A stretch of DNA of 64,000 bases from Jatrophihabitans sp. (GTDB lineage: Bacteria > Actinomycetota > Actinomycetes > Mycobacteriales > Jatrophihabitantaceae): contig NZ_DASVQG010000144.1 in assembly GCF_036389215.1 (NCBI RefSeq), positions 4,300-68,299 of the forward strand, given 5' to 3'. Every line of letters starts with the position of its first letter. Position 1 is the stretch's first letter. This document shows positions 9,461 through 61,296 of this stretch, piece after piece. The notes under the pieces are model-generated. The model was given only the letters and a program-made list of their open reading frames with translations, was not told the origin of the DNA and searched no databases. A program made the position numbers and the translations under genes.

Positions 9461-9467
9461 AGGATCA

Positions 9468-40996: not shown

Positions 40997-41036
40997 TCAG
41001 CAACTGCGGCCAGTCCAGGATGTCGCGAGACATCAG

Positions 41037-41348
41037 ATGGCGGAGGTGATCTTTGCCTACTCGAACTTCCGGCTTCCGGAGCTGCCGGGGAGGAGCACAG
41101 GCGGCCCTAGCTCGGAAGAACCCGGCTTGCTGGACCAATCGGCTTGCCGGGCACCTCTGCTGCTATCGCGCGATGACGGACCGCCGCCTGACACCTCTTG
41201 GCGGATCACAGAGCAGCAGCGAGCCGAGGTTCGCCGCCTTCATGCCGCAGGCCTTTCCATGACCAAGATCGCTCAGCAGACAGGAATGGCTTGGGCAACC
41301 GCTCGGTTGATCATCGATGCAGCAGCTGACTCGGTGGAGGCAGGTTAG
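41037..41348 (+). CDS. Small protein or remnant ending in a resolvase-like HTH
   Basis: ITEQQRAEVRRLHAAGLSMTKIAQQTGMAWATARLII. Confidence 0.5.
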   Translation: MAEVIFAYSNFRLPELPGRSTGGPSSEEPGLLDQSACRAPLLLSRDDGPPPDTSWRITEQQRAEVRRLHAAGLSMTKIAQQTGMAWATARLIIDAAADSVEAG

Positions 41349-41439
41349 TAGCTAAGTCGTCCTATGGCACCGACCGGATGCGCAGACCTGTCCCTCCTTG
41401 GGTGCATACTCGAAATGAACGAGTATGTGAGGAGTAGGA

Positions 41440-42669
41440 GTGACGGTCTTCGAGGAGGACGGCTTCGGCCGCGCCGATGACTTTGGTGAGGACATGACCG
41501 AGACCGGATTTGCACGAGAGCGGAAGGCGGACAGGACGTACCTGTCAAAGACGTTCCATATTGACCGAGAGACCTCCTCCGATTTCCGTCAGCCCGCCAG
41601 GATCATCCACAAGGTATTCGACTGTTACCGAGTTGCGCTTCGACGGCGAGGAGTGGACCGTCTACGAATCCGAGGCGGGAAGGGTTCAGCTGAAGTTGCT
41701 CGTGGTGCGCGAGCAAGGTCGCGTCAAGGAGCTCTGGGTACAGAAAGTGCCTTCTCCAGGTGTAGTGGGCAAGACGAAGATCATCCTCAACCTGCGTGAA
41801 CCAAACGTCACCAAGCTCATCGATTTGATACGCGGCCTTGACTACATAAAACTCGAAGGTGGAGCGACGGTACGTGTAGATGATTCGCTGATCCGGCAGG
41901 TCTTCGATGATCCGTTAGCTCTGGACCAGGCATATGCCAAGGACCGGGAGAAGTTCAAGAAGCTGATCCAAAACGACGTCGCTGCAAAGGACGTCATCGC
42001 ACTGGCGCACCGTCGCGAGCAAGTGGCGCTCTTCCGCCGGTACATTCAGGATCAGAAGTACTTTGAGTCAGTACGCGAGAACACGCCGGGTAAGTCTGCC
42101 GAGAAGGTCTGGCAGCTTCTGTTCGAGGCCAACCCGTGGATCTTGGGGCTGGGCCTCGGTACCAGGTTACTAACGTCCTGGGATGACGATCGCCTTGAAC
42201 AGATAGTCGCTGGCTCCAATGTCGCGGGTGCCGGCAAACGTGTCGATGCGTTCATGCAGACCGCTGGCCGAATCAGATCCATGGTGTTCGCTGAAATAAA
42301 GACGCATGCTACACCTTGTTACAGAAGGACTTCTACCGCTCAGGATGCTGGGCACCAACCGACGAAATGGCTGGTGAAGTTGCCCAGGTTCAGGGAACCG
42401 TCCACCGGGCTTCTATGCAGCTCAATGAACGGATCAGCCAGAAAGATGAGACTGGAGCTGAGGTTCCAGGTGAGTTTGGCTATTTATTAAAGCCGAAGTC
42501 GTTTCTTATAGTTGGTCAACTCAACGAGTTCGTGGGACCTGCAGGTGGACATAATGTTGACAAGGTTAGGTCGTTCGAGCTCTACCGACGCAATCTAGGC
42601 GAGCCTGAAATTATCACATTCGACGAACTCTTGGCGCGTGCTAATTGGATCGTTGAGTCCAACATCTAG
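41440..42669 (+). pseudogene. sduA: Shedu (SduA, DUF4263) anti-phage nuclease with two frameshifts
   Basis: Three consecutive frames join up: ..HKVFD / VTELRFDGEEW...FEANPWILG...RVDAFM..FAEIKTHAT / LLQKDFYRSGCW...AQVQ...IITFDELL. Shifts near 41622 and 42315. Confidence 0.85.
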
Positions 42670-42686
42670 ACCCTTGCCCTTAACTC

Positions 42687-43382
42687 CTACTTCTTAAACG
42701 CTGATGCCGCTGCTATTGCTGCCGCTGCCGCAGCGACGCCTGTCGCAAGGAACGAGACTAATGCGGTTAGGCTTTCACGCGTTTGGAAGCTGAGGCCAAA
42801 CGCACCGAACTCAAGCGTCAGATCATTTTCGCTAGATTCACGTGGATGCTCTTGAACATTGACGTTTTCGAGCGGCGCTGCAAGCGAACAGGTAGCTACA
42901 GAATCGACTAGTGCAGATACAGTAAGGGTCCCGCCATGGCGCAGCAGGCCCGGACCGACAAGGACGGTGTTACCGCTCAGACGAACCGGCAACAGGCCGT
43001 CTTTTTCCGTCGCCTCAGGTTCGAGTAGAGCGAGTACATTCGCGTTGAACGACAGAACGACGGGCCTACCTCCGTCAAAGGAAACCGTGCCAATGTCGGT
43101 CTTGCTGGCGTTTTCAAGACGCACCGTAGCGATGGCTGGGTGATCGACTGGATTGCCCTGCCACGTGACGACGAGTTCTCCCGTCAGACGATGGTCATTA
43201 CGAACCATTGGGACTACTGTTTGACTCCACCGAAGCGTGCGCCGGTTCCTGGCGATTACAAGCGTTCGCCACGCAAACCAACCAAGCGCGAGCGTTACGA
43301 TTACGAGGGCGACTGTTAGCCAGAACGTCCCGGAGACATATAGGTGGTCACTCGAACTTGACTCCTTCGGCGTGGTTGTCAC
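42687..43382 (-). CDS. Hypothetical membrane-anchored protein
   Basis: 231-aa ORF; N-terminal TM helix, beta-rich middle, hydrophobic C-terminus. Confidence 0.65.
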   Translation of the reverse strand: MTTTPKESSSSDHLYVSGTFWLTVALVIVTLALGWFAWRTLVIARNRRTLRWSQTVVPMVRNDHRLTGELVVTWQGNPVDHPAIATVRLENASKTDIGTVSFDGGRPVVLSFNANVLALLEPEATEKDGLLPVRLSGNTVLVGPGLLRHGGTLTVSALVDSVATCSLAAPLENVNVQEHPRESSENDLTLEFGAFGLSFQTRESLTALVSFLATGVAAAAAAIAAASAFKK

Positions 43383-43621
43383 GGAGTCCAGTGTCGACTA
43401 TTGCCACCACGCGGGCCAAGCGAGGGTCACGGGCATGTGGCGCACGGTTGTGCTCGTGTGGCGTGGACAAGGAGGTTCCTCGCGCATACAGAGGCCTCCG
43501 CGTGGATTGTGCACGCGCTGGGGGCCGAGCGGCGCGACCGTTTCCGTCGCCACGCTCCGCCCAAGCCAGGTCGTATTGGCCAATGGAACCAAGCAGCGTG
43601 CGGGCACCGTTGTTCCACTTG

Positions 43622-43796
43622 CGACGACGGACCAACACCGGACTCCTGCTCGCGCATCACGGAGCACCACCGTGCCGCCGGTTCGCCAGCTTCACGCCCC
43701 AGGCCTTTCCACCACCAAGCTCGCCAAGCTGACTGGGATGGCATGGTCTACTGCTCAGCTGATCATCGAGGCAGCAGCAGACTCGATGAGGGTTAG
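43622..43796 (+). pseudogene. Degenerate, frameshifted second copy of the 41171-41348 HTH segment
   Basis: DDGPTPDSCSRITEHHRA / VRQLHAPGLSTTKLAKLTGMAWSTAQLIIEAAADS aligns with copy 1. Confidence 0.75.
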
Positions 43797-43875
43797 TAAC
43801 GGTCCACTCCCCATAGCGACTGCCATCCTGCGCAACTCCCTTATGCAACTGCCTGCGTCCAGGCAGCGTGGCAGT

Positions 43876-44622
43876 CTAGGCGCCTAACAGGCGCGCCAAC
43901 ACAGACGCAAGGACGCTGGCACCGACGTTGGAGCCGAAGGAGCCGACGGCCTCAAGGATCCGACGTGCCGTCGATCGCTGCTCGTCGGGCCGATTGGGGT
44001 CATTCGCTACCTCCTGCAGAGCGTTGATCAGCGCATAGACGGCGGTCTCCGCTGAGGGCCATGCGCCCGCGCGGCGACGGCCCTCGCCGGAGACCGCATC
44101 TATCAGCCATGCGTTGCTGTTGGCGCCACGCCGGACACCAACAAGCAAACCATCGTTCTCTAGGGCGCGAATCCCGACCTGAACAGTTCCGAGGTCGAAA
44201 CCCGTCAGTTGGGCGATGTCCTCGGGGGCGATGTCTGGCGCACTTGGGTCCGCCTCATGCAGTTGGAGTGCCGCCCGCAAAATCCGTAGGTCCCGTCTGA
44301 TCCAGGTCTCGTCGTCGACGTTACCCATCACCATCGCCGAACCCGGTGTTGCAGCGCGTGGCGGATCGCAGTGTTCGATCCGAAGGTCAATATTCGCGAG
44401 TGACCCGCCTGGATAGACGGTTACGTCTCGCACGACCCAGTGCTCGACATTTCCATTCGCCAGTGTCGCGCGCAAGATATCGCCGCGTTGTACATCGGTG
44501 GTATCACCGGAGATGTGTGCTCGATCCCGATCTAGGAGCGCCCGGACCATGCCGTGGGGATGCAGGCTTTCAGACGGCCGGATGAGCTCTACGTCGGTCC
44601 CGTGAGTCTGAAAAAGGTCCAC
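43876..44622 (-). CDS. Hypothetical two-domain protein (beta-rich N-terminus, wHTH-like C-terminus)
   Basis: Likely GTG start 44622; IAPEDIAQLTGFDLGTVQVGIRALENDGLLVG resembles a winged helix. Confidence 0.6.
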   Translation of the reverse strand: MDLFQTHGTDVELIRPSESLHPHGMVRALLDRDRAHISGDTTDVQRGDILRATLANGNVEHWVVRDVTVYPGGSLANIDLRIEHCDPPRAATPGSAMVMGNVDDETWIRRDLRILRAALQLHEADPSAPDIAPEDIAQLTGFDLGTVQVGIRALENDGLLVGVRRGANSNAWLIDAVSGEGRRRAGAWPSAETAVYALINALQEVANDPNRPDEQRSTARRILEAVGSFGSNVGASVLASVLARLLGA

Positions 44623-44931
44623 GTGGCAAGCATGCCAGGGCACCCCAACAGCATGCGGACTGGGACGCCTTGACCATCCGCTGGTCATCATCGAGGCTGC
44701 AATTGATCCGGCGGAGGAGGTTCGTACGAGATTGATCAGGTGCCCCTGACCGAACAGCTTACGAACGAGCAATTCGGTAAAAATAACATAAAGCTTTCAG
44801 GGCTCCGAGACCAGAATCGGGCGGTCGTGGGCGAAGGCTGAGTGTGTCAATGTGGGTGCGGTACAAGGATTGCCGCCAAACGCTGTTTCGTCGATCCGGC
44901 TCATTATGACGCTTGGCGGTCGCGCTCAGAC

Positions 44932-45351
44932 CTACGGTGACCGTAGAGCAGGCGAGGGCAGCGCCAGATCACCTGCATGAAACAGGAGTCGCCGCCGGAT
45001 GCTGCCTCTGACAGCCACAGTTGCCCCACTCGAACCCTGTCCAGGAAAGAGCAATGCGTGCTCGACAGTCGCCTGGTCCACCCAGCGCGCCGCCAGGCTG
45101 AATGCTGCCAACTGCTCAAGGGCAAGCTGCTCCTCGCCACCGTCGGCGAGTGGGCGGTTTGTGCATCCGGTGTTGCGGACGGCCCAATACAGGCCTCTCC
45201 CAGCTCTGGCCCCCTGATGCACGTTCTTAAGGTTGTCGCTTCCATCGTTTGGCATGAGGCGCAGGCGCGGGTGATCGGCCTGTGGGTCGTTGAGGGAGAA
45301 CGCTTGCTGGAACAGCTTCGCCTCACCTGGATGGGTCAGCCTCAGCTTGGC
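44932..45351 (-). pseudogene. N-terminally truncated TIGR02391-like protein
   Basis: LFQQAFSLNDP...NVHQGA..GLYWAVRNTGC...EQLALEQLAAFSLAARWVDQA resembles the TIGR02391 C-terminus; in-frame TAG at 45352-45354 and no start. Confidence 0.55.
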
Positions 45352-45402
45352 CTACGTGTCGGCGGTCACGGGCTGGGCCGCGCGGCCATGACGGCCTGGT
45401 GA

Positions 45403-46066
45403 TGTGACTGGGTAGCGCAGATCGAGCAGGCGGTGGCCAGCCACTACCGAACGGTGACCTTGCCGGTCGACCTGCGGCAGGAACTCGCCGCCGGGTTTGA
45501 CAAGGCCGCCGAGGATCATCAGAACCAAGACGCCAGCCATAAGGTGCACTTGCGCAAACGACTGGCCGAGCTTGACCGCCAAGAGGACCGCTACATCGAA
45601 CTTGCCGCCGATCCCGACTGGCCGAAGGCCAAGCTCACCCAGAAGCTACGTGACATCCGCGACGAGCGAGCCCGACTCGAAGGGCGCCTGAACCAAACCA
45701 CCGCACAGCTCGATCAAGGCCAGGCGAACGCACGGCTCTTGCTGGACTACCCCTACGAGCTGTACCTCGGGTCAGAAGTTCAGGACCGCACGAAGCTCAA
45801 CCGGCTGCTGTTCAAGAAGGTCAAAATCGACGTAACTGAGGGTCATAACCCCCAAGTCACCAGTGATGAGATGCTTGAACCGTTCGCCTCGGTCGTCTAC
45901 TTCCGCCGCCAGCATGAGACGCCGACGGACAGCGGGCTGGGCACCGTCTACCTACGCGAAGCAGGCGGCGCTCCACTGAGGAGCCCCGCCTGCGACAACC
46001 ATCTGCTGTCCCTACTCGAACGGGCCCTCAGCGGCGAGCCTCTCAAGGGTTCAAGTAAGAACACAA
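45403..46066 (+). pseudogene. C-terminal remnant of a large serine recombinase/integrase
   Basis: IEQAVASHY, a coiled-coil (RKRLAELDRQEDRYIEL), RTKLNRLLFKKV; the frame runs into the tRNA antisense (GSSKNTMAEDRGFEP); no catalytic domain. Confidence 0.7.
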
Positions 46067-46154
46067 TGGCGGAGGATAGGGGATTCGAACCCCTGAGGGC
46101 GTTAACCCAACACGCTTTCCAAGCGTGCGCACTAGGCCACTATGCGAATCCTCC
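46067..46154 (-). tRNA. tRNA-Ser(GGA)
   Basis: GGAGGATTCGCATAGTGGCCTAGTGCGCACGCTTGGAAAGCGTGTTGGGTTAACGCCCTCAGGGGTTCGAATCCCCTATCCTCCGCCA. Confidence 0.97.
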
Positions 46155-50176: not shown

Positions 50177-52087
50177 TCAGCCACCCGCCGGCGAATGAGC
50201 CGGGTGAGCATCGTCGGTGACGGCCAGCACGGTGCCGTGCACGATCTCGACGAAGCTGCCCTCCGGTGGCAGGTTGCCGGTGCCGACGATCGCGGCCGGC
50301 ACGCCGGCTTCGCGTAACAGGATGCCGAGGTGGCTCAGCAGCGCGCCTTCTTCGAACAGGAAGCCGTCCACCACTCCGAGCAGCATCGACAGCACGGCGA
50401 TCGGCCGGGACACCGCGATGATCACCCCGGTGCCGTCCAGGCTGAGCCGCTGGCGCAGGTGGCTCAACAGCAGCGCCTCGTTCTCGGCCGAGACCGGCTG
50501 GGCGATGCTGATGATCGGCGCGATGCTCGACTCGGTGAGGATGTCGTCGATGCTCAGCACCTGCACCCGCCCGCTGGCCACGCCGGCGCTGAGCACCCGC
50601 GCGCCGGTCACGCCGTGTCCACCCTTCGGCGCGGCGGGCCCGGTGACCGGTGCGGAGTAGTCGACGAAGAGCAGGCTGCCGTCCTCAACCACCCACTCCA
50701 GGGTGGCTCGCGGGTGGATCCGCCGGGCATGCTCGCGCGTCGTGCCCTCCAGCGCCCTGGCCTGCTCCGGCCCCAGCAGCGCGTTCAACGCCTCGCCGGT
50801 GATCGGGTGCGCGCTGCCGAAACCGCGGTTGAGGGCCAGCAAGCCCTCCTCGGACGCCTCGACGTACACCGAGCCGTCGGTGGCCACGGTCGACAGCAGC
50901 GCCGTCTCGCCCCTGATGTACTCGCGGCACAGGAACGCGAAGTCACCCTCTCCGGGCGCGGCGTCGGCCAGCCGCCGGACCGTGTCGGCCAGCTCGGCAC
51001 TGCCGATGATGTACTGGCGCTCCGTCGGGCTGGAGTCGATGACCAGGCGGCCGGGTAGCTGCTTGCTCCAGGCGGTCAGCGGCTCGACAGGCCCCGTCCG
51101 GTCCCAGTTGGCCAGCCAGCCGCCGGGCACCCGGGCGCCCTGTGAGATCGCGATCGCCCGCGCGAGCCGGCGCTTGGCGCGAATCCTGGTGTACTCACCG
51201 GCGCACTCGCCCAGGACCAGGTCGTGCAGGTCGCCTTCGTAGAGCGGGGTGATCCGCACGCCGTCGGGGGCCGGCTGCCCGGTCAGGCCCGCGGTACGGG
51301 GCCGCACCTGCACTATCCACAGCAGCCGGCCGTCCCAGGCCCACTCGACGTCGTGCCCACCGCCGCCTTCGGACAGCGCCGCCAGCGCCGTCCGCAGCTG
51401 CTGCCGCCAGCCGTCGGCGGCCGAGGACCGGCTGAGGCGCTCACCGGTCGGCACCGCCAGGCCGGCGACCAGCCCGCTCGCGTGCCCGGGGGTCCATTCG
51501 AGGTAGCAGTCCCCGGACGGCTCGCTGAAGGCGACGCCCGCGACCTGCGGGGCGATCGCCCGCTGCACCAGCACGCTCATGTGGTCCGTGGCCGGCGGCC
51601 GGCCGATCCTTCGGTACTGCGCCAGCGCCTGGCGGCTGAACCCTGATCGCCAGACCTGCTCTACGGCCCGCACCAGATCGGGCTCGTCGACGTCGACCAC
51701 GCTGTCGAAGACCCCGGCGAAGCTCAGCGATGAGCCGTCCTCGTCCGCCGAACTGCTGCGCACGACGAGAACCGGGCCCAGCCTCAGCCGGTGTGCCAGG
51801 GCATGCAGTTGCCGCACCTGGCCGGCGCTGAACCGCACCCGGTCCAGCACCGCCTCGAGCCTTGTCAGCAGCGCCTCCAGCGCGTTCCGGGGCTGGCTGG
51901 TCAGTTCGGCGAGCAGCCCGTCGAGCTCTGACCGAAGTCCGGGCTGCATGCCCTGGCAGATCCAGCTGCCGGGTATGACGAAACCGGGTGGCACCGCGAC
52001 GTGCCCGTACTCGCGGGCCAGGCCGGCGGCCTTGTTGCCGTAGCTGCCGGCCATCCGAGCTTCAGCCAGTTCGGTGAGGGCAGTCAC
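50177..52087 (-). CDS. PPDK/PEP-synthase-like phosphotransferase (ATP-grasp + phospho-His swivel domain)
   Basis: GTG start 52087 overlaps the upstream stop; GNKAAGL, VPPGFVI, VRSSSADEDG...SFAGVFDS, VLVQ, DVEWA...VQVRP, and a His domain GALLSHLGILLREAGVPA. No pyruvate/PEP-binding barrel. Confidence 0.88.
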   Translation of the reverse strand: MTALTELAEARMAGSYGNKAAGLAREYGHVAVPPGFVIPGSWICQGMQPGLRSELDGLLAELTSQPRNALEALLTRLEAVLDRVRFSAGQVRQLHALAHRLRLGPVLVVRSSSADEDGSSLSFAGVFDSVVDVDEPDLVRAVEQVWRSGFSRQALAQYRRIGRPPATDHMSVLVQRAIAPQVAGVAFSEPSGDCYLEWTPGHASGLVAGLAVPTGERLSRSSAADGWRQQLRTALAALSEGGGGHDVEWAWDGRLLWIVQVRPRTAGLTGQPAPDGVRITPLYEGDLHDLVLGECAGEYTRIRAKRRLARAIAISQGARVPGGWLANWDRTGPVEPLTAWSKQLPGRLVIDSSPTERQYIIGSAELADTVRRLADAAPGEGDFAFLCREYIRGETALLSTVATDGSVYVEASEEGLLALNRGFGSAHPITGEALNALLGPEQARALEGTTREHARRIHPRATLEWVVEDGSLLFVDYSAPVTGPAAPKGGHGVTGARVLSAGVASGRVQVLSIDDILTESSIAPIISIAQPVSAENEALLLSHLRQRLSLDGTGVIIAVSRPIAVLSMLLGVVDGFLFEEGALLSHLGILLREAGVPAAIVGTGNLPPEGSFVEIVHGTVLAVTDDAHPAHSPAGG

Positions 52088-52602
52088 CGGAAGTTCCGGA
52101 ACAGCATGGACGCCCTGGGGCCGTTGGCGTGCTGGTACTTGCCGTCGTACAGCGCGATCTCCCCGACCGTGGTCCACCACATCATCTGGCCGATCTTCAT
52201 GCCCTCGTACACGATCACGTCGTGCGTCGCGTAGAGCTGCAGCGTCCATTGCCCGATGAAGCCGATGTCACCCAGCGGCGCCGACAGGTTGATGAACAGG
52301 CCGAGCCGTGCCACCGACGAGCGCGCCGCGAACGTGGGAACGTAGTGCTCGCTTCCCATCACCTCCCGAGTCGCGGCCAGGTACAGCCTGTTCGCCTTCA
52401 GCTGCAAGCCCTCGGGCGGGATCCGGATCTCCTCGGTGAGGTTCTCGCGGCTGGCGTCCAGCAGCTCGTCGGAGTACACGATCAGGTGGTCCGACAGCGT
52501 GAAGTTGTAGCTGTTGGGGTTCACCGCGCTCTCGTCGAACGGATCGATGATGATGCGGCCGGCCTCTCGCTCGCGGGCGATCTGCAGCCCGGACAGGATC
52601 AC
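52084..52602 (-). CDS. dcd: dCTP deaminase-like protein A (dUTPase-fold); keeps RSS..R but has Gln at the catalytic Glu position
   Basis: MILSG, IDPF, NPNSYN, AARSSVARLG, GDIGFIGQWTLQL, GMKIGQ, GKYQ. Family clear, activity uncertain. Confidence 0.85.
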   Translation of the reverse strand: MILSGLQIAREREAGRIIIDPFDESAVNPNSYNFTLSDHLIVYSDELLDASRENLTEEIRIPPEGLQLKANRLYLAATREVMGSEHYVPTFAARSSVARLGLFINLSAPLGDIGFIGQWTLQLYATHDVIVYEGMKIGQMMWWTTVGEIALYDGKYQHANGPRASMLFRNFR

Positions 52603-53123
52603 GATGCGACCTCGGTGCAGAGCCGGCTCTCGGTGACCGCGACCGAGTTGGCATACCGGCCGTTGTACTGCACCACGTCACCGTTGACGCTCCAGAACGC
52701 GACCTTGCCGATGCGCATCCCGCGGTGCAGCCGGATCGGCTGGGACACCCGGATCTCCAGCGTCCATCGGACGATCGCACCGGTGTGACCCAGCGGCGCG
52801 CTCACCTGGATCCAGACGCCCAGCGCCGCGATCGACAGGTTGCCGTACAGCTCGCACGCGTAGCGGGTGCTGCCGATGATCTCCAGCGTCTCCCCGAGAT
52901 ACAGCCGGTTGGGATACAGCAGCACGCCCTCGGCGGGAATCTCGACCGGTGCTATCCGTTCCAGCGGCCGGTGGGCGTCGTAGACCTCGTCGTCACAGCT
53001 GAGCAGCCGGTGCCCCAGCCGGAAGCCGTAACTGTTCTGCTCGACCTGGTCGGCCGTGAAGGGCTCGATGGCGATGACGCCGTTGCGGCGCTGCCGCGTG
53101 ATCTCGGCACCGGTCAGCAACAT
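52599..53123 (-). CDS. dCTP deaminase-like protein B; keeps the catalytic Glu but lacks RSS..R
   Basis: Start ATG 53123; MLLTG, IEPF, QNSYGFRL, YGNLSIAALG, WTLEI, GMRIGK, GRY. Confidence 0.82.
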   Translation of the reverse strand: MLLTGAEITRQRRNGVIAIEPFTADQVEQNSYGFRLGHRLLSCDDEVYDAHRPLERIAPVEIPAEGVLLYPNRLYLGETLEIIGSTRYACELYGNLSIAALGVWIQVSAPLGHTGAIVRWTLEIRVSQPIRLHRGMRIGKVAFWSVNGDVVQYNGRYANSVAVTESRLCTEVAS

Positions 53124-53725
53124 AGGACACCGGTCAGCAACTCGGCGCAGAACTCGCGCACGTGCTCGATCCCGTCGCGATTGTTGTCGAACTCGACGTC
53201 CCAGCCGATGTTGTCCAGCTGGAAGACCTGCTCGTCGTCGACGATGCTCAGGTCGTTGCGCGCGCGCAGCCGCTGATGGCGCACCGAGCGATCGCATCGA
53301 ACACGTATGAAGTAGAAGCCCAACTCGCGCAGCCGGGGCGCGTCGACGACGTGGTCACGCAGGTCGGCATTGATGACCACCGTGCCGGCGGGAACCGCGG
53401 CCAGTGACTGTTCGAAGCGCTCGACCAGCGCGGTCGGCCGGATCCGCCTGATGTGCCTGGCCAGATCCAGCATCAGTTGCTGGTCCTGCTGGTCGCTCGG
53501 TTTCGGCTCGGCGATCTCGTGGTACAGCCGGTTCTGCAGGTCGTGCAGCAGGGCCGCGAGCCCGATCACCTGGGACCGATGGCCAGCAGCGGCAAGTGAT
53601 TCGGTCAGCACGGCCGCCGTCGTGGACTTGCCGCTGCCGGTTTCGCCCACCAGGCAGATCCGGGACCGGCGCGGCGGCGACCCGAGCCGCCCGGCAGGCG
53701 CGGGGTCGTCAGCGCAGGCTTGCAT
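53114..53725 (-). CDS. P-loop kinase, dNMP-kinase/dephospho-CoA-kinase-like
   Basis: ICLVGETGSGKST, VVINADLRD, FIRVRC, lid RHQRLRAR, DVEFDN. Confidence 0.78.
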   Translation of the reverse strand: MQACADDPAPAGRLGSPPRRSRICLVGETGSGKSTTAAVLTESLAAAGHRSQVIGLAALLHDLQNRLYHEIAEPKPSDQQDQQLMLDLARHIRRIRPTALVERFEQSLAAVPAGTVVINADLRDHVVDAPRLRELGFYFIRVRCDRSVRHQRLRARNDLSIVDDEQVFQLDNIGWDVEFDNNRDGIEHVREFCAELLTGVLCC

Positions 53726-54872
53726 ATTGATCTCGCAGGAACGTCAACTTCGACTCGTGTCGCTGGTAGTTCTCGATCCCACGCTCGTCGAAGTAGGTAC
53801 TCATCAGCACCCGCAGCCGGTCGAGGTCCTGCCGGACACTGTCGAAGGTGGCGCCCGTCAGTGCCAGGGAGTAGGCGTACTCCATCTCGCACTGCGTCAG
53901 TTCGGCGGCGGCCGGGATCCGGCGGCCCGACCGGTCAATGACGATGCTGCGGTCGTAGGTGATGGCAATGACGTTGCCGCTCTCGATGGCCTCTACGTAC
54001 ACGTCGTAGCGAACGCGCCGGAAACTTGCGTTCCACGCGGGCGTGAGGCCCAGGACGTCGCGGAGGTAGGCCTCGTAGTCTGCGACCTCGACATTGCGCT
54101 TGCGCAGTTCGACGCGCTCGTCGGTGTCCTCTGTGTAGATCTTGCGCTTCACCGTATAGCGGCCGTCGGTGGTCGGGATGAAGGAGACGTAACCCACCTC
54201 CTCAGCCGGTTCCTCGATGGCATAGACATCGTTCAGGAAGTCCCAGGCCTGGATCTCCTCCTCCCGGAACTCGACGACGAAGCCGGCCAGCCCGCCGGAT
54301 CGGGCGAGCCGGAGCGTGTCGCGGGACAGGGCGAAGACGTCCGGATGCCCGGTGAGGGTGAACTTGTGTTCCAGTTCCACGTCCGGCTTCAGCTTCACCC
54401 TGAAACACAGGTGATTCGCGATCTTGAGGAAGTGCTCGTCGATTCCGGCCAGCAGATCCGGCACGGCGGAGGCGCGCGGCGAATGCTCACCGGGAAGGCG
54501 CAGGAACTTCGCGTGGCCGCGGTAGAGGTCGACCTGCGGGTACAGCTGCATCCGCGACAGCGAGGGCAGTTCCGGCCGGAGCAGCCCGATCGGCACGTTG
54601 CGGTCGTGATCGAGGACGGCCTGCGGCGAGACGGCCGACCGGTCGGTGACGGTCCCGCCGGAATCCAGCACGAGGGCCCGCGCATCAGGCCATCCGCGAA
54701 GATCCAGCGTGTAGCTCTGGGCGCCGTCGGTGGGGGGAGCGAGCGCCGCGGCCGGGCACTCCAGCAGTGTCACCTGCCATTCGGGGGGACGCCGGACGGA
54801 GGATCGCAGATCGTGGGATCCCACCACCAGCCACGCGGCTGGGCTCAACTCGTCGAGCACGCTGTCCTTCAA
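53709..54872 (-). CDS. CYTH/triphosphate-tunnel-metalloenzyme-like protein with unknown N-terminal domain
   Basis: ELEHKF (ExExK), YTVKRK, FRRVRY, TYDR, CEMEY, ESK. The start may be GTG 54860 (GAAGGA RBS). Confidence 0.72.
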   Translation of the reverse strand: MKDSVLDELSPAAWLVVGSHDLRSSVRRPPEWQVTLLECPAAALAPPTDGAQSYTLDLRGWPDARALVLDSGGTVTDRSAVSPQAVLDHDRNVPIGLLRPELPSLSRMQLYPQVDLYRGHAKFLRLPGEHSPRASAVPDLLAGIDEHFLKIANHLCFRVKLKPDVELEHKFTLTGHPDVFALSRDTLRLARSGGLAGFVVEFREEEIQAWDFLNDVYAIEEPAEEVGYVSFIPTTDGRYTVKRKIYTEDTDERVELRKRNVEVADYEAYLRDVLGLTPAWNASFRRVRYDVYVEAIESGNVIAITYDRSIVIDRSGRRIPAAAELTQCEMEYAYSLALTGATFDSVRQDLDRLRVLMSTYFDERGIENYQRHESKLTFLRDQYASLR

Positions 54873-54954
54873 TCACTCGGACCCGAAAGTCCACATCACT
54901 CGGACCCGAGGTCGTACGGCAGAAAGTTGCCAGAAAATATCACAACCTATGTGA
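54872..54954. promoter_or_regulatory. Direct repeat pair and palindrome upstream of the nucleotide-enzyme operon
   Basis: ATCACTCGGACCCGA at 54872-54886 and 54895-54909; TCACA-N5-TGTGA at 54940-54954. Confidence 0.5.
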
Positions 54955-54987
54955 AAGATGGACTTTTTCCTAGCCCTCTTCCAGGCC

Positions 54988-56262
54988 TCAGGCCGCGGGC
55001 AGCTCGTGCCCCTCGACGACTGTCCGGCTGAGGACCCGGCTGTGCACGGTCGCCGACACCGGCCTCAGCAGCGACGCGGCGACCACCATGACCGCACCCA
55101 GAACCAGCCATCCGTAGTCGCCGAAGAGGTGCAGCGACCCGGTGACCAGGAACGGCCCGATCAGGAGCGGGAACGAGACGTAGGCCGACCAGACGGACTG
55201 GTTGTGGGCGGTGAGGTCGTGCCGGCGCAAGCTCATCGACAGGCCCCAGGTTGCCGCCGAGGCGTACAGCTCGCCGACCGACAGCGCTACCACCGCCACC
55301 AGCAGGAGAAGTACTCCTGCCAGGCTGGTGGTGGTGGCGCTGGCGAAGAAGAGCAGGCAGGCCAGGCCCAGTACCGCACCGCCGCGCAGGCCGGCCCGCG
55401 ATGCCCCGGCGATGTCGGAGGAGCCACGACTGAGCCGAACCTGGAAGGCGATCGCCACGATCGTGTTCACCGACATCGCCAGCCCGATGAGCCACTGGTG
55501 GCTGTGGTAGTTGCCCAGGATCAGCAGCGGCAGCCCGATGGTGAGCAGGCTGGTGCACAGGAAGAGGGTTCCGCACAGCAGCCCGATGACCGCGAACCTG
55601 GCGCCCGGCGGCGGTGCCGGACCCTGCGCCGCCGCCCGTACCGGATCAGGCGGTAACCGGGTCGCCAGGGCGGCCGCCAGCACGAAGGACACCCCGTTGC
55701 CGGCGACGACCAGGTACAGGCTGAGCCGGCTCTGCTGGCCGACAAGGGCCGCTGCGGCAAGCAGGGACCCGACGGCGAAGGAGAGGTTGTAGACCGATCG
55801 GTTGTAGGCCGCGATCCGCACCCGGTCGTCCACCGCCGCGAAGGCGTACAGGACGACCTTTCGAACCGGGCTCTCCCAGCCGTCCATGACCAGGAGGAAC
55901 ACGCTCAGCACCAGGAAGGCGGCAAACCCGTGGATCAGCAGGTAGGCCGGGAAGGCCGCGCCCCGGATCAGATGGACCCAGATCAGCGTGCGGCGGTGCC
56001 CCAGCCGGTCCGACAGCCGGCCCAGTGGCACCCGGGTCAGCAGGCTCACCACGCCACCGAAGCCCAGCGCCGCTCCGATCTGCGTCGGTGACACCCCGAT
56101 CACGCGCACGAACAGCACCACGCTGACGGTGAGGAAGCAGCCCGTTCCGGCCGAGTCGACGGTGGTGATGAGGGCGTAGGCGCGTTCCTGCGGCGTTGGC
56201 GGCAGGACGCTGCGAAGCGCCCGGGCAACCCTCAACGGCCAGCTCCTCGGTGCGCGCGGCAT
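54988..56262 (-). CDS. MFS transporter
   Basis: About 12 TM segments; motif A-like GRLSDRLGHRR. Confidence 0.92.
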   Translation of the reverse strand: MPRAPRSWPLRVARALRSVLPPTPQERAYALITTVDSAGTGCFLTVSVVLFVRVIGVSPTQIGAALGFGGVVSLLTRVPLGRLSDRLGHRRTLIWVHLIRGAAFPAYLLIHGFAAFLVLSVFLLVMDGWESPVRKVVLYAFAAVDDRVRIAAYNRSVYNLSFAVGSLLAAAALVGQQSRLSLYLVVAGNGVSFVLAAALATRLPPDPVRAAAQGPAPPPGARFAVIGLLCGTLFLCTSLLTIGLPLLILGNYHSHQWLIGLAMSVNTIVAIAFQVRLSRGSSDIAGASRAGLRGGAVLGLACLLFFASATTTSLAGVLLLLVAVVALSVGELYASAATWGLSMSLRRHDLTAHNQSVWSAYVSFPLLIGPFLVTGSLHLFGDYGWLVLGAVMVVAASLLRPVSATVHSRVLSRTVVEGHELPAA

Positions 56263-56356: not shown

Positions 56357-58087
56357 TCAGCCGCTCGTCACCGTCTGGCAGCCCAGCGCTGAGTTGGCCC
56401 CCACGCCGATGTTCAGCCCGTACGCGCACAGCTGGTTCGTCCCGGCGGCCAGCGCAACGGTGTAGCTGAACCCGTGGGCGCCGGTGACCGACCAGGCCCG
56501 GTTGACGTCGGCGCGGACCAGCGAGGTCTGGCTCGAGGCAACCTGCTTGCCGTTGCGGGTGACGCTCACGCCGATCGCCTGGGCGGCGTTGCTGAAATCG
56601 AAGGCCCAGCCGGTGACCACGGCCTGGGTGCCCTGGACGGTCACCGAATCGATCCGGCCGAACGGGGACGTCCTCAGCTGTACCACCCGGCACCCTGCCC
56701 GGCCGGTGGAGCCCGGGCCCTTGTTGAGGGCATAGACGCAGACCGTGCTGCTGCCGGCCGGCACCCGGACGGTGACCGTGAAGCCGTGCAGGCCGGTGCC
56801 GTGGAAGAGGTTGTTGATGTCGCGGCGCAGGATGGTGGAGCCCACCGTGCCCGCCAGCGCGCCGTTCACCCGGGCCACCACCGTCAGCGGGGCGTCCGGG
56901 GCGTCGTAGTCGAACGACCAGCCGGTGAGGGTGACGACACTGCCCTTCTGCACGACCTGGTCGACGTAGCCCACCGGAACACCGGGCAGCGGCACGCTCC
57001 GGCAGCCGATCTGGGTGTAGTGGCCGGCGCCCAGGTTCATCGCGTAGGCGCAGACGGTGTTGGCGCCGTTGTTGAGCTTGAGCGACGTGGTGTAGCCGTG
57101 GTTACCGGTGATCTTGTAATAGGCGTTGACGTCCGGGCGCGGCACGGTCGTCTGGACGTAGCTGACCGGGGTGCCGTTGACGTGGAACCAGATCCGCACG
57201 CCGCTGGTGGTGGCGTTCGGGTCGAAGGCCCAGCCGCTGATCTTCAGGTAGCGCCCGTACAGCCGCCAGACGTCCACCCTGCCCAGCGGGTCGTCGTGGG
57301 CGATCCGGCCGCCCGGCATCAGCAGCTTCGCCTCGCCGGTCACGATGCCGGGGATAGAGCCGTAGCTGCCGCCCTGGGTGAGGATCACCACCGCGTACCG
57401 GTCGCCGTTGACCAGGCCGGTGGAGTTGTAGGCAGGCTGCCAGGACGGGTTGTCGCCGCCCCAGCCCTGCTTGACGGCCGCGCCGGTGGTGGCGCTGGGA
57501 ATGCCGAAGAACTGGTAGGTGCCGTCGGAACCGTAGCGGGTCGCGTGGTGCATGGCGTTGCCCAGCCAGTTCCAGATCGCCGGGCGGTGCCGGACCTTGT
57601 TGTAGAAGGTGGCCATGCCGGCAGCCGTGATCCGGGTGCCGCCCCACCAGCCCGACCGCAGCGGGGGCGCGCCCAGGTTGGGAATGTCGAGCGCCTGCTT
57701 GATCCAGGTGATCAGGCCGTCACCACCGGTCCGGCCGTAGAGGGCGCTGGCGGAGGCGTCGTCGGACTGGGTGATCATCTTGTACGCGGTGGTCTGGTTC
57801 CAGCCGGTCATCTGCCCGGTCATCAGCAACCGGGTCGCGATGAACACCTTCATCACCGACTCGGAGGCGTAGTAGCTGTTGTAGTCACCTGCCCCGCTGA
57901 ATGTCCCGGTCTGGGTGTCGATCACCGCCACCGCCGATCGGTAGCCGTGCTGCCGGGCATAGTTGACAGCATTGGTCGCCTGGCTGCCGACCGAGGCCGC
58001 AGCCGGCGCGGGCACCGTCACCGCACTGATCAAGCCGATCACCAGAGCCAGTCCGCTGGCTCCGGCCAGCACCGCCTTTACGCGCAT
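56357..58087 (-). CDS. Secreted class-A beta-lactamase-like serine hydrolase with three C-terminal beta-rich repeats
   Basis: Signal peptide; SVMK (SxxK), SDD, KQGW; repeats of G.VD...GWAFD...R.DVN...G.HG. Confidence 0.8.
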   Translation of the reverse strand: MRVKAVLAGASGLALVIGLISAVTVPAPAAASVGSQATNAVNYARQHGYRSAVAVIDTQTGTFSGAGDYNSYYASESVMKVFIATRLLMTGQMTGWNQTTAYKMITQSDDASASALYGRTGGDGLITWIKQALDIPNLGAPPLRSGWWGGTRITAAGMATFYNKVRHRPAIWNWLGNAMHHATRYGSDGTYQFFGIPSATTGAAVKQGWGGDNPSWQPAYNSTGLVNGDRYAVVILTQGGSYGSIPGIVTGEAKLLMPGGRIAHDDPLGRVDVWRLYGRYLKISGWAFDPNATTSGVRIWFHVNGTPVSYVQTTVPRPDVNAYYKITGNHGYTTSLKLNNGANTVCAYAMNLGAGHYTQIGCRSVPLPGVPVGYVDQVVQKGSVVTLTGWSFDYDAPDAPLTVVARVNGALAGTVGSTILRRDINNLFHGTGLHGFTVTVRVPAGSSTVCVYALNKGPGSTGRAGCRVVQLRTSPFGRIDSVTVQGTQAVVTGWAFDFSNAAQAIGVSVTRNGKQVASSQTSLVRADVNRAWSVTGAHGFSYTVALAAGTNQLCAYGLNIGVGANSALGCQTVTSG

Positions 58088-58195: not shown

Positions 58196-59005
58196 TCAGC
58201 CTGTGGTGCCGGTGCTGCTGTCCGCGTGCGGTCGGGTACCGGCCCACCCTGGCTTGGGTCGCCAGCCGCGCTCGCCGACCAGCAGGATCAGGGTTGCCAG
58301 CAGCAACACGCCGGTGCCTGAGCTGAGCCCCGCCGCCGCATAGGCCAGCCCGCCGGCGAGCAACCCCTCGATGAGCATGACGGCGCGCAGCGAGACCGGT
58401 TCGAGCTTGCTCATCCGCAGGTGCAACTGCCGCAGCGCCGGTCCGGACCGGCACCGGGCGCTGAGCAGCACGGCCAGTCCGCGCACCAGGCCGAACACCG
58501 TTCCGCAGGCCAGCGCCAGCGCCGGTGATCCGGTCAGCGCGGCCAGCGCCACCACCAGGTAGGTCGCCGCGGTCATGATGTAGGTGGCGAAGCCGATGCC
58601 GATCTGCGCGCCGAAGCCGGCCGCGTACAGCCAGCGGCGATAGCGGGTCAGCCAGAGCTCGTTGACCTGGCGGGGATGCAGCGGCAGCTGGAATCCGGCC
58701 AGCCGCCGGTCCGCCGCGAGTGCGACCAGGCAGGCCAGCACGGCGATCCACAAGGCGGCCACCCGGTGATCGGCCAGCGGCCGCAGGACTAGTGCGAGCA
58801 GGCCGCTTGCGGACCCGAGCGCCACCCCGCCGAGCACCGAGCCCAGCACGAACCAGAGCGTGGTGAGCCAGTACCGGTTGCCGCGCGAGCGCTCGGAGAG
58901 CGGGTTGATGGCCGAGATCATCGACAGCCCGCACGGGGACCAGGTGCCGCGCGCTCCGGACACCGCCGCGATCAGCAGCGCGCCCGCTGCCAGCGCGCCG
59001 GTCAT
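58196..59005 (-). CDS. MauF/CcdA-like membrane protein
   Basis: Start ATG 59005 overlaps the upstream stop; TWSPCGLSM, RQVNELW, GFGAQIGIGF; multi-TM. Confidence 0.7.
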   Translation of the reverse strand: MTGALAAGALLIAAVSGARGTWSPCGLSMISAINPLSERSRGNRYWLTTLWFVLGSVLGGVALGSASGLLALVLRPLADHRVAALWIAVLACLVALAADRRLAGFQLPLHPRQVNELWLTRYRRWLYAAGFGAQIGIGFATYIMTAATYLVVALAALTGSPALALACGTVFGLVRGLAVLLSARCRSGPALRQLHLRMSKLEPVSLRAVMLIEGLLAGGLAYAAAGLSSGTGVLLLATLILLVGERGWRPKPGWAGTRPHADSSTGTTG

Positions 59006-61296
59006 ACCGGCACCACCGTCCAGTCGGCGTCCTCGTCCTCGGACACCGTCCGGCCGCCCAGCATGGCCGGCGCGGCGGCGGAGTCGGGACGGGCGGCGTA
59101 CACCGTGTAGGTGTGGGTGCCGGGCAGGTCGGCCAGGGTGATGTCGAAACCGGCTCCGGCAGCGCCGGTGAGCTCTGGATGATCGAGCCCGGTCTGGTGC
59201 CGCGACAGCGCGGCGCCGTCGCGGAAGACGGTCAGTGCCAGCCGGCTGGCGGGCCGGTCCGGGTCGTAAGCCCAGCCGGTGATCCGGACGGTGTCGCCCA
59301 TCCGGCGCACCGACTCCACCAGGCCGAGCGGGCCCGACTGGTTCACCCGGACGGTGTGCCGGCCGATCGGCGGGATGCCCTCGGCGCTCTTGCCGTCGTC
59401 GCCCTCGTCCTGGCTGAAGGCGTCCTGGCCGAGGGCATAGGCGGTGTAGGTGTGGACCCCGGTGCCGGCCGGGATCGTGAAGTCGAAGGCCCGCAGGCCG
59501 GCGGCACGGTCGAAGGCGGCCGGATCGGACCGGGCCGGGTACCAGTGCAGGGTGTGCTCGTCCTCGAACACCGCCACGGCGGGAGCGGCGCCGGCCGGAT
59601 CGGTGTCGGCAACCCAGCCGACCAGCCGCACGCCGGTGCCGGCGGCGGTGACCGAGTCCAGCCGGCCGGACAGCCGGGCCGGGGCAACGGCAACGGCAGC
59701 GGCAACGGCAACGGCAGCGGCCGGAGCGATGCCCGCCGGAGCCACCGCCGGCTTGGAAGCCGGCACCACCACGGTGCGCTGGGCCAGGAAGGCGTTGCTG
59801 ATGCCGCCGCCGGCGTCGAGCGCCCAGACCCGGTAGATGTGGCTGCCCGGCGTGGTCGGAATGGTGATCTTGAAACCGTGGATTCCGGTGATCTTGAAGG
59901 CGGCGTTGACGTCCTCGCGGTTCACGGTCGTCCTGGTGTCCGGAAGGCGGATGCCGTCCTGGAACACCGCGATGCCGATCGAGACGGTGGGCACGTCCTT
60001 GTCGAAGGCCCACCCGGTCAGCACCACGCTGGTGCCGATCGCGACCGCGGAGTCGAGGTAGCCGGTCGGCGCCACTCCCGGGGGAGCGGGCACCATCACG
60101 GTGCGCTGGGCCAGGAAGGCGTTGCTGGTGCCGCCGCCGGCGTTGAGCGCCCAGACCCGGTAGGTGTGGGTGCCCGGCGTGGTCGGGACGGTGATCTTGA
60201 AGCCGTGGATTCCGGTGATCTTGAACGCTGCGTTGACGTCCGCGCGGTTCACGGTCGTCTTGGTGTCCGGAAGGCGGATGCCGTCCTGGAACACCGCGAT
60301 GCCGATCGAGGTGCTGGGCACGTCCTTGTCGAAGGCCCACCCGGTCAGCACCACGCTGTTGCCGACAGCGACGGCGGAATCCAGGTAGCCGGTCGGTGCC
60401 ACCCCGGGATTGACCGTGATGCCGCGGCCGCCGAGGCGGGGGTTGGTGCCGGCCGGGCCGATGTTGATCGCCCACACGCTGTAGTAGTGGTAGCCGTTGG
60501 TCGCGGTGAAGCTGATGTCGTAACCGTGCTGGCCGGTGACGTGCCGGGCGCTGTTGACGTCCGGCCGGGGCTTGTTGGCGGCGTACGCCCGCAGGAACTT
60601 GCCGTCCTGATAGATGTGGACGGTGAGCGAGGTGCCCGGCGCGTCCGGGTCATAGGTCCAGCCCTTGATGTGCACCGTGTTGGCGGTGCTGGCGATCTGG
60701 TCGACGTAGCCGACCGGGGCCCGGTTGACGATGCACGGCGCGGAATGGCTGGCGGTGTTGTTGTCGGTGGCGCTGGAACTGGAGCAGGTGCCGCCGAACT
60801 GCACCCACGGCGGCGTGCAGGAGACCACCCGGCACAGCACCGGGCCGGTGGATGACCACGGGATCTGGGTGTTGCACTGGCCGTAGCGGAACTGGTTGCA
60901 GGCGACCAGGCGCTGGTCACAGGTGCTCTGGTTGCAGCGGCAGCCGTACCTGCCGTCGCGATAGGCGTTGCAGTCGATGTAGTAGCGGGCGCTGCCGCGG
61001 CAGAAGGAGGAGTTGTCCGCCTTCCACCAGCCACCGATGAAGGAGTCGGGCGGGCAGCTGTTGGAACCACCGTTGATGGTGCAGCAGAACACCGAGTAGC
61101 CGGCGCCGCAGGTGTTGTCGGCACCGCAGACCGAGTCATAGGCGCTGGCCGGCCGGGTCAGGTAACCCCATGGGTCGACCGCCAGCGCGGCACCGACCAG
61201 GGCCGCGCCGCCCAGGAACCCGCGGCGGCTGGCCAGCAGCCGCTCGGTCCGCTCGGCAACCCGGTTGACGATCCGCTCGGCCAGGCTAACCGGCAT
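59002..61296 (-). CDS. Tat-exported Cys-rich (MauA/MADH light-chain-like) protein fused to five beta-rich surface repeats
   Basis: SRRGFL twin-arginine motif; 16 Cys in about 135 aa, including NSCPPDS..GGWWKA...YYIDC; C-terminal repeats shared with the neighbouring serine hydrolase. Confidence 0.75.
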   Translation of the reverse strand: MPVSLAERIVNRVAERTERLLASRRGFLGGAALVGAALAVDPWGYLTRPASAYDSVCGADNTCGAGYSVFCCTINGGSNSCPPDSFIGGWWKADNSSFCRGSARYYIDCNAYRDGRYGCRCNQSTCDQRLVACNQFRYGQCNTQIPWSSTGPVLCRVVSCTPPWVQFGGTCSSSSATDNNTASHSAPCIVNRAPVGYVDQIASTANTVHIKGWTYDPDAPGTSLTVHIYQDGKFLRAYAANKPRPDVNSARHVTGQHGYDISFTATNGYHYYSVWAINIGPAGTNPRLGGRGITVNPGVAPTGYLDSAVAVGNSVVLTGWAFDKDVPSTSIGIAVFQDGIRLPDTKTTVNRADVNAAFKITGIHGFKITVPTTPGTHTYRVWALNAGGGTSNAFLAQRTVMVPAPPGVAPTGYLDSAVAIGTSVVLTGWAFDKDVPTVSIGIAVFQDGIRLPDTRTTVNREDVNAAFKITGIHGFKITIPTTPGSHIYRVWALDAGGGISNAFLAQRTVVVPASKPAVAPAGIAPAAAVAVAAAVAVAPARLSGRLDSVTAAGTGVRLVGWVADTDPAGAAPAVAVFEDEHTLHWYPARSDPAAFDRAAGLRAFDFTIPAGTGVHTYTAYALGQDAFSQDEGDDGKSAEGIPPIGRHTVRVNQSGPLGLVESVRRMGDTVRITGWAYDPDRPASRLALTVFRDGAALSRHQTGLDHPELTGAAGAGFDITLADLPGTHTYTVYAARPDSAAAPAMLGGRTVSEDEDADWTVVPV
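59763..60407 (-). repeat. Near-identical 327-bp (109-aa) internal tandem duplication
   Basis: VAPTGYLDSAVA.G.SVVLTGWAFDKDVP...SNAFLAQRTV twice; offset 327 bp measured at AGGTAG. Confidence 0.92.

Follow-up and report, generated by a model that had tools for sequence, protein, structure and literature searches.

Nucleoside-antibiotic gene clusters are known from actinomycetes, such as those for polyoxin/nikkomycin, blasticidin and toyocamycin/tubercidin, but we know of no described one that is built around Dcd-fold proteins, a triphosphate-tunnel (TTM) protein or a barrel-less dikinase. In the anti-phage dCTP deaminases and AvcD, cytosine-nucleotide chemistry goes together with a P-loop kinase-type module on a single polypeptide, whose zinc-dependent deaminase has the cytidine deaminase (CDA) fold. 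Here, a high-GC stretch of 64,000 nucleotides from Jatrophihabitans sp. (the window) was analyzed, in which five genes, named A to E, encode proteins related to these enzymes and are preceded by a gene for an MFS transporter. Genes A to E are one conserved functional unit, for which the biosynthesis and export of a modified pyrimidine nucleoside or nucleotide is a reading with about even chances of being correct. The features of the locus are as follows:

54988-56262, minus strand: MFS transporter of 424 aa (Pfam MFS_1), putative exporter
54929-54945, minus strand: promoter-like element TTGTGATATTTTCTGGC upstream of gene A, with the conserved motif TTGTGATAnnTTCTGGC
53709-54860, minus strand: gene A, TTM/CYTH-like protein, probable GTG start (longest open reading frame to TTG 54872)
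53114-53725, minus strand: gene B, P-loop nucleotide (dNMP-type) kinase-like protein, 203 aa
52599-53123, minus strand: gene C, Dcd-fold protein of the "C-type", 174 aa
52084-52602, minus strand: gene D, Dcd-fold protein of the "D-type", 172 aa
50177-52087, minus strand: gene E, rifampin-phosphotransferase-type dikinase, 636 aa, GTG start

The distribution of the genes was analyzed by a genome scan with the alignment of A alone, which covered one genome per species (185,579 species) and matched only two exact peptide patterns. The scan yielded 96 relatives of A; 80 loci were kept and searched by tblastn with B, C, D and E. All five genes were present in 59 of these 80 loci, while 8 loci were partial, mostly at contig ends, and 13 contained A alone. 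Thus, the grouping that had been noticed in the window recurs elsewhere. The actinobacterial hosts included Streptomyces, Kitasatospora, Nonomuraea, Sphaerisporangium, Micromonospora, Amycolatopsis, Nocardia, Cellulomonas, Microbacterium, Curtobacterium and Paenarthrobacter. Further hosts were Solirubrobacterales, Chloroflexi, Clostridia (including a Ruminococcus) and Acetobacteraceae. With a Paraburkholderia cluster that was found via E, the hosts number about 60 bacterial species of four phyla, with members in Actinomycetota, Chloroflexi, Clostridia and Proteobacteria. Relatives of A were also found on five large Streptomyces plasmids.

In the majority of loci, D and E form a single fusion protein of about 830 aa, with D at the N-terminus and with DCD, PPDK_N and PEP-utilizers domains. 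Since the two proteins are fused in most relatives, D and E are likely to act together. The usual gene order in relatives is the D-E fusion, A, 3-6 kb of other genes, and then adjacent B and C. The order B-C-D-E-A was observed in Acetobacteraceae and Solirubrobacterales. The order A-B-C-D-E with the upstream MFS gene was found only in Jatrophihabitans-like genomes and in Labedaea rhizosphaerae DSM 45361 (locus L010). These differing gene orders indicate three sub-modules, i.e., [B C], [D E] and [A].

Pfam scans of the clusters of representative relatives revealed the company that A-E keep. The extended clusters encode a NagD-type HAD phosphatase, a type-I phosphodiesterase/nucleotide pyrophosphatase (NPP), DUF6001 and DUF6031 proteins, an SRPBCC protein, a protein of about 360 aa without assignment (U363) and two or three ATP-grasp ligases, one with an L-amino-acid-ligase C-terminal domain (LAL_C2). 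In addition, they contain a divergently transcribed gene for a protein with a LuxR-type (GerE) helix-turn-helix as well as MFS transporters, which are replaced by EamA and TauE in Paraburkholderia. One sub-type carries a fatty-acid-desaturase-like oxygenase, a class-III aminotransferase and an NAD_binding_4 reductase, and a penicillin amidase was found in one extended cluster. Since exporters of unrelated families recur, a small molecule is likely to cross the membrane. The extended clusters look like a specialised-metabolite cluster built around a nucleotide: core, tailoring genes, regulator and exporter are all present in the relatives, whereas the core in the window has the exporter only. 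By their nucleotide-handling enzymes, amino-acid ligases, phosphatases, LuxR-type regulator and exporters, the relatives resemble the nucleoside-antibiotic clusters of actinomycetes. As a category, nucleotide-derived specialised-metabolite clusters are known; this enzyme set is not. The initial annotation had proposed the production and export of a modified pyrimidine nucleoside or nucleotide. This proposal fits best among the options, because the relatives embed A-E among transporters, a regulator, ligases, phosphatases, an aminotransferase and reductases; the product and its export remain inferred.

The version in the window is the minimal form, i.e., the bare core and a pump. Homologues of the HAD, NPP, DUF6001, DUF6031, SRPBCC and U363 proteins and of the ATP-grasp ligases were not found in the 64-kb window. 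Several points weigh against biosynthesis and export. Without the phosphatases and tailoring enzymes found in the larger clusters, the minimal cassette would yield a phosphorylated nucleotide unless host enzymes act on it; MFS pumps rarely carry nucleotides. Two related loci (L002 and L003) are without the MFS gene. The match of E to PEP-utilizers, i.e., to its His domain (E 4e-4, 20.5 bits), is under the curated cut-off of 23.1 bits, and all catalytic steps are inferred from sequence and context. Finally, a block of MFS and A without B-E was found in Umezawaea, which fits a role of A in immunity or salvage at least equally well.

This block was identified by comparison of Labedaea (L010, 8490-11120) with Umezawaea (L011, 8512-11120). 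The two loci share 2.6 kb with 93% DNA identity, comprising exactly MFS and A, and nothing beyond; unrelated genes replace B-E in Umezawaea, which has a full extended cluster elsewhere (L034). From this single case, MFS and A may be a mobile immunity pair. The cassette as a whole might serve the uptake and salvage, the catabolism or the detoxification (resistance) of an exogenous nucleoside analogue from neighbouring organisms. The MFS transporter would take up or expel this analogue, the enzymes would convert or inactivate it, and the cassette would be an immunity or utilisation module instead of a producer. The spread of the MFS-A block resembles that of resistance pairs, paralogues of A stand beside NUDIX house-cleaning enzymes, and the minimal cassette is devoid of tailoring enzymes and phosphatases. 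However, A-E also make up the constant core of the biosynthetic-looking clusters, detoxification would hardly call for five translationally coupled enzymes, one of them a dikinase that consumes ATP, and MFS with A alone was seen once. On balance, we regard a salvage or detoxification module as unlikely.

The architecture of C and D was compared with that of trimeric Dcd and bifunctional Dcd-dUTPase (TIGR02274; 4xjc, 2qxx, 1ogh). Both proteins are equal to these enzymes in fold and length and align end to end with the Dcd from Bacillus halodurans (4xjc). The Pfam family DCD (PF22769) was matched by C with 84 bits (E 2e-23) and by D with 118 bits (E 5e-34), with a cut-off of 27 bits. In contrast, the scores for the dCTP-deaminase equivalog TIGR02274 (49.0 bits for C and 72.4 bits for D) were both under its cut-off of 92.8 bits. 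For comparison of the active sites, 67 C-type and 65 D-type sequences were aligned with 4xjc; the positions compared presumably correspond to S111, R115, D128 and E138 of the E. coli Dcd. In D, the catalytic Glu is replaced by Gln (WTLQL), while AARSSVARLG with the RSS motif and the Asp of LGDIG are retained, each in at least 90% of the 65 D-type sequences. In C, the catalytic Glu is retained (WTLEI) and the Asp of VDPGF is replaced by His (LGHsGA), each in at least 90% of the 67 C-type sequences. Moreover, GRSSvGRLG of Dcd has degenerated to GNLSIAALG in C of the window. By these alignments, the active-site changes in C and D are fixed and complementary. Since each paralogue has lost part of the canonical catalytic set, neither C nor D is predicted to be an ordinary dCTP deaminase. 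As the RSS and Asp residues are intact in D, a dUTPase-like pyrophosphatase is an alternative for this protein. Unlike Dcd and Dcd-dUTPase, the C and D paralogues are always found together, and D is fused to or lies beside a dikinase, while C lies beside a kinase.

E combines an ATP-grasp domain, a central domain and a putative C-terminal His swivel domain. It matches Pfam PPDK_N with 90.7 bits (E 1e-25; cut-off 27). The PEP/pyruvate TIM barrel PF02896 was not found in E, and the protein ends with the His domain. Thus, the annotation of E as a PPDK-like protein without the pyruvate barrel was borne out, with an architecture of the rifampin phosphotransferase (RPH) type. Assignment of E as pyruvate phosphate dikinase (PPDK) or phosphoenolpyruvate (PEP) synthase (PEPS) was ruled out on account of the absent barrel. 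H586, R592 and E593 in the motif LSHLGILLREAGVPA, which aligns to PEPS 9dae, are invariant, as are the ATP-grasp residues. In a Foldseek search with the AlphaFold (AF2) model of E (mean confidence, pLDDT, 81.8), RPH structures ranked best (5hv1 with E 1e-18, 5hv3, 5fbs, to 3e-16), followed by HpeI 9goj, and the model superposed on the ATP-binding domain of RPH (5hv6) with a TM-score on the target of 0.71. E shares its domain order, the lack of a barrel and the invariant phospho-carrier His with RPH and the barrel-less dikinases HpeI, PigC/RedH/HapC and Cj1418. Compared with RPH, it is about 230 residues shorter, and its central domain has no recognisable sequence relative. The score for the RPH equivalog NF041857 was 57 bits (cut-off 999), with a match covering only the ATP-grasp part. 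Among RPH and the other barrel-less dikinases, E is unique in that most members of its family carry a fused Dcd-fold domain. By its residues and modelled architecture, E is a putative His-swivel dikinase that is predicted to phosphorylate a small molecule.

In public databases, automated annotation names homologues of E "rifampicin phosphotransferase" or "PEP/pyruvate-binding domain protein" and homologues of C "dCTP deaminase". Taken literally, these names would describe housekeeping, i.e., dCTP deaminase and dUTPase for dUMP supply plus a PEP synthase-like enzyme. We consider this extremely improbable, as C and D score below 92.8 bits for TIGR02274, E is far below every PEPS and RPH cut-off, catalytic residues are replaced, the pyruvate barrel is missing from E, and 96 relatives of A were found by the exact-pattern scan of 185,579 species genomes. 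Canonical dCTP deaminase/dUTPase housekeeping was rejected on the basis of the cut-offs and the catalytic residues. Judged by scores and active-site residues, the names "dCTP deaminase" and "rifampicin phosphotransferase" are probably wrong for these homologues.

The dikinase class of E, to which Cj1418 presumably also belongs, raises a further possibility: the cassette might provide a nucleotide-activated or phosphoramidate-type donor for an envelope polymer, like the O-methyl phosphoramidate (MeOPN) of Campylobacter (Cj1415-Cj1418). A P-loop kinase and cytosine-nucleotide-binding folds are present as well, and the flanking genes would be in line with this idea. Two chromosomal settings were observed. 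In the first, PAP2-DAGK-PAP2-DUF1206 lies on one side of the block (window, L090 and L092). In the second, the block lies between Acyl_transf_3 and an amino-acid permease (L001 and L091; also L002, which is MFS-less). However, these neighbours vary with the chromosomal context and are missing from the extended clusters, the cassette encodes no glycosyl-, nucleotidyl- or polymer phosphotransferase, and the exporters and amino-acid ligases of the relatives point to a small soluble product. Thus, an envelope donor is very unlikely. Since the six-gene block occurs in two settings, the flanking genes are outside the unit and its boundaries were drawn correctly; the block is horizontally mobile.

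B belongs to Pfam AAA_18. Its matches to characterised proteins were weak: the kinase domain of anti-phage dCTP deaminase (NF041025, E 6e-5), the PADLOC models dCTPase (E 4e-5) and VakA, the phage dNMP kinase phrog_139 (E 6e-4), and the AdkA-like structure 3lw7 (E 4e-6 over residues 73-186). A profile of B compared with the PDB gave mostly Walker-A-only matches to ABC transporters. Invariant in B are the GxGKS Walker A (G30, G32, K33 and S34), QDQ, NxDxRD and the LID-type residues R149, R152 and R156. Wherever both genes were called, B directly precedes the C-type Dcd gene. Of the folds assigned in the initial annotation, MFS, DCD (twice) and PPDK_N were recovered by Pfam, while the kinase assignment of B came from the weak matches.

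The match of B to NF041025 also bears on a role in intracellular anti-phage defence, by which the dCTP/dUTP pool would be depleted or altered or an antiviral nucleotide analogue would be made on infection. Anti-phage dCTP deaminases, AvcD and viperins act in such ways. Besides this match, the sparse and patchy distribution, the movement of the block between chromosomal contexts, a low-GC island with a Shedu SduA_C-like ORF about 4 kb away and a type I-E CRISPR-Cas locus nearby in L002 are in favour of defence. On the other hand, B reached 22 bits with a cut-off of 400, and no PADLOC model matched A, C, D, E or the MFS transporter. In contrast to the anti-phage dCTP deaminases and AvcD, the cassette has trimeric-Dcd-fold proteins on separate genes. 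Relatives of A were found neither in 50,697 INPHARED phage records nor in IMG/VR, and matches in PHROGs were confined to generic families of dCTP deaminases and kinases. Furthermore, the deaminase Glu is lost in D, C is without the RSS/Arg/Asp set, and exporters, a LuxR-type regulator, amino-acid ligases and aminotransferases would be superfluous for pool depletion. Four lipid-phosphate genes, syntenic in relatives, separate the Shedu-like island from the operon. The earlier suggestion that the cassette reshapes the dNTP pool for defence thus kept the match of B as its support among the five proteins and appears quite improbable. The companion statement, that no described cluster of this composition is known, held: no pathway or defence system matched in PADLOC or NCBIfam, and a literature search gave no description of this cluster, with most subscription papers beyond its reach.

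In A, a beta-rich domain at the N-terminus (about residues 1-150) precedes a divergent CYTH/TTM domain. In an alignment of 25 sequences, with identities down to 29%, the ELEHK motif, i.e., the EXEXK motif E166-x-E168-x-K170, was invariant. K242/R243/K244, R285/R286/R288/D290 and E329/E331 were invariant too, within rows of Lys/Arg and Glu/Asp from residue 160 on. The AF2 model (pLDDT 90.5) contains a C-terminal beta-barrel, and Foldseek retrieved with probability 1.0 the thiamine triphosphatase ThTPase 3bhd, YgiF 5a60, PH1819 2een (TM-score on the target of 0.63) and HpAC1 6yp4; RNA triphosphatases were resembled in addition. The TM-scores were moderate (0.45-0.63 on the target). By sequence, A had no match in Pfam (including CYTH), NCBIfam, PADLOC, PHROG or the PDB (E up to 0.01 or 10), and its family comprises 277 representatives among 1.84 billion proteins. 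The likeness to CYTH/TTM proteins (ThTPase, YgiF, CyaB, Cet1/Pct1) thus lies in the EXEXK first strand, the invariant basic and acidic rows and the predicted barrel; the differences are the missing Pfam CYTH and PDB sequence matches, the extra N-terminal domain of about 150 residues and the very small family. The label "CYTH" given previously was therefore appropriate at the level of the fold (AlphaFold/Foldseek and EXEXK), but A stands outside the curated family and has an extra domain. According to the model, A is a triphosphate-tunnel fold predicted to act on triphosphates. In plant TTM1/TTM2, the P-loop kinase partner is present as a fused domain. A natural fusion of another kind was observed in P0261 (870 aa), in which a Lys/Orn N-monooxygenase-like flavoenzyme (97-297) is joined to an A-family domain (544-843). 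Taken together, the scores make the five proteins divergent members of known superfamilies, none of which qualifies as a member of a characterised family.

A has a second home. The A-only loci mostly belong to another conserved Streptomyces cluster with QueD, QueE and FolE (e.g., L052, 2477-11985), which also contains two unassigned proteins, PNP_UDP-like and thymidylate-kinase-like proteins, DUF2797, a methyltransferase, NUDIX, A and sometimes an RNase_T exonuclease. This cluster is plasmid-borne in L087 and L088 (NZ_CP020040.1 and NZ_CP107821.1), with an adjoining phage portal gene in NZ_CP107821.1. Since A stands here beside a P-loop nucleotide kinase and 7-deazapurine-type chemistry, a role of A on nucleoside triphosphates is indicated. 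This supports the view that the A family is tied to nucleoside triphosphates and not to pyrimidines as such.

For biosynthesis and export of a modified pyrimidine, the following scheme may be proposed, in which a common pyrimidine (deoxy)nucleoside triphosphate would be converted to a modified nucleotide or nucleoside that leaves via the MFS transporter. First, a (d)UTP- or (d)CTP-like nucleotide would be bound by D but not deaminated, since D retains the phosphate- and sugar-binding residues of dUTPase/Dcd and has Gln at the position of the water-activating Glu. Second, ATP would phosphorylate His586 of E, and the phosphoryl group would be passed to the nucleotide bound by D. As acceptor, the C4 carbonyl oxygen appears most attractive, with a sugar hydroxyl as an alternative. 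CTP synthase activates UTP by phosphorylation of the C4 carbonyl, and PigC-type dikinases activate a carbonyl likewise; the preference for C4 follows from this analogy. Third, C, with its retained Glu and new His, would catalyze addition or elimination at C4. B would set the phosphorylation state, A would cleave or trim the product triphosphate, either as a pathway step or for self-protection of the producer, and the MFS transporter would export the product. This specific C4-activation scheme is a tentative one and rather unlikely. The same doubt applies to a further idea, in which the D-E pair represents a new enzymatic logic: a Glu-less deaminase-fold pocket would present the nucleotide to a swivelling phospho-His, phosphorylation would activate C4 or another position, the second Dcd paralogue would rebuild it, an as yet unseen class of C4/N4-modified pyrimidine nucleotide antimetabolites would result, and TTM and MFS would form a separately mobile immunity pair.

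If biosynthesis and export hold true, the cassette would stand at the centre of a family of nucleotide-derived natural products that is still unexplored, in dozens of species of Streptomyces, Nonomuraea, Kitasatospora and Micromonospora. The same core, which Clostridia, Chloroflexi and Proteobacteria possess as well, may give access to a novel natural product and to new enzyme chemistry. Three folds would be new to nucleoside-antibiotic pathways, i.e., a remodelled trimeric Dcd, a barrel-less dikinase and a triphosphate tunnel enzyme. With six genes in about 6 kb, the version in the window is the smallest natural form and the simplest construct for finding the core reaction and the scaffold. 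An equal minimal cassette is available in the cultured strain Labedaea rhizosphaerae DSM 45361.

The arrangement of the genes was verified from the coordinates of the open reading frames. Six minus-strand frames at 50177-56262 and the overlaps of 17, 10, 4 and 4 bp between A and E were reproduced as first described. The gap between the MFS gene and A had been given as 115 bp; this applies to the TTG start, while the likelier GTG start at 54860 yields 127 bp. Since the Shine-Dalgarno sequence GAAGGA (54865-54870) overlaps TTG 54872 and the public gene call for protein A of the window is 383 aa, translation of A more likely starts at GTG 54860. Longer frames for C (from 53297) and E (from 52249) were rejected, as the homologues have 174 aa and about 613-643 aa, respectively, with equal 4-bp overlaps. 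The 17/10/4/4 overlaps are also present in L001 and L002 (51-61% identity of protein A), and the gene arrangement is equal in L090-L092 (60-76% identity). This recurrence in diverged relatives argues that the coupling and packing are conserved and not due to chance.

Upstream of A, the motif TTGTGATAnnTTCTGGC is located at a distance of about 70 nt and is kept in L001, L002, L007, L009 and L013, while the remaining spacer has diverged. This suggests that the element is a promoter (or operator) of A-E in its own right, separate from the MFS gene. A scan for consensus sigma-70 promoters gave none at 54929-54945 or elsewhere in the scanned sequence, and terminator-like sites were not above shuffled expectation. 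Apart from the tRNA and one match at chance level, a search for riboswitches and other RNA elements at 44-60 kb gave nothing. An exact direct repeat of 15 nt, TCGGGTCCGAGTGAT, occurs at 54872-54886 and 54895-54909, in the stretch that separates the conserved motif from the ribosome-binding site of A; it was not present in the relatives examined. The MFS transporter matches Pfam MFS_1 (E 4e-20) and weakly the NCBIfam efflux-type transporters YdeE and YdeA, making it a putative exporter. Homologues with 61-67% identity are encoded directly upstream of A in L001, L007-L010 and L013, and the MFS gene likewise lies upstream of A in L090-L092.

Further features were observed elsewhere in the window. 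A low-GC island at 40900-46154 (58-63% versus about 70%) abuts tRNA-Ser(GGA) at 46067-46154. Among its ORFs, the one at 41510-42490 matched the Shedu SduA_C nuclease domain (E 1e-6), and several others had no family match. From its sequence, the island is probably an integrated element or a small defence island. Two large predicted secreted proteins are encoded at 56357-58087 and 59002-61296, with several modules of about 100 aa (GYVDQ...TGWAFD...VN..KITG.HGF); the protein at 56357-58087 had no Pfam match. Finally, adjacent ORFs of 724 and 1013 aa lie at 7286-12509, and in translation the N-terminus of the first, VIQMEAVECGAAALGI, recalls bacteriocin ABC exporters with a C39 peptidase.

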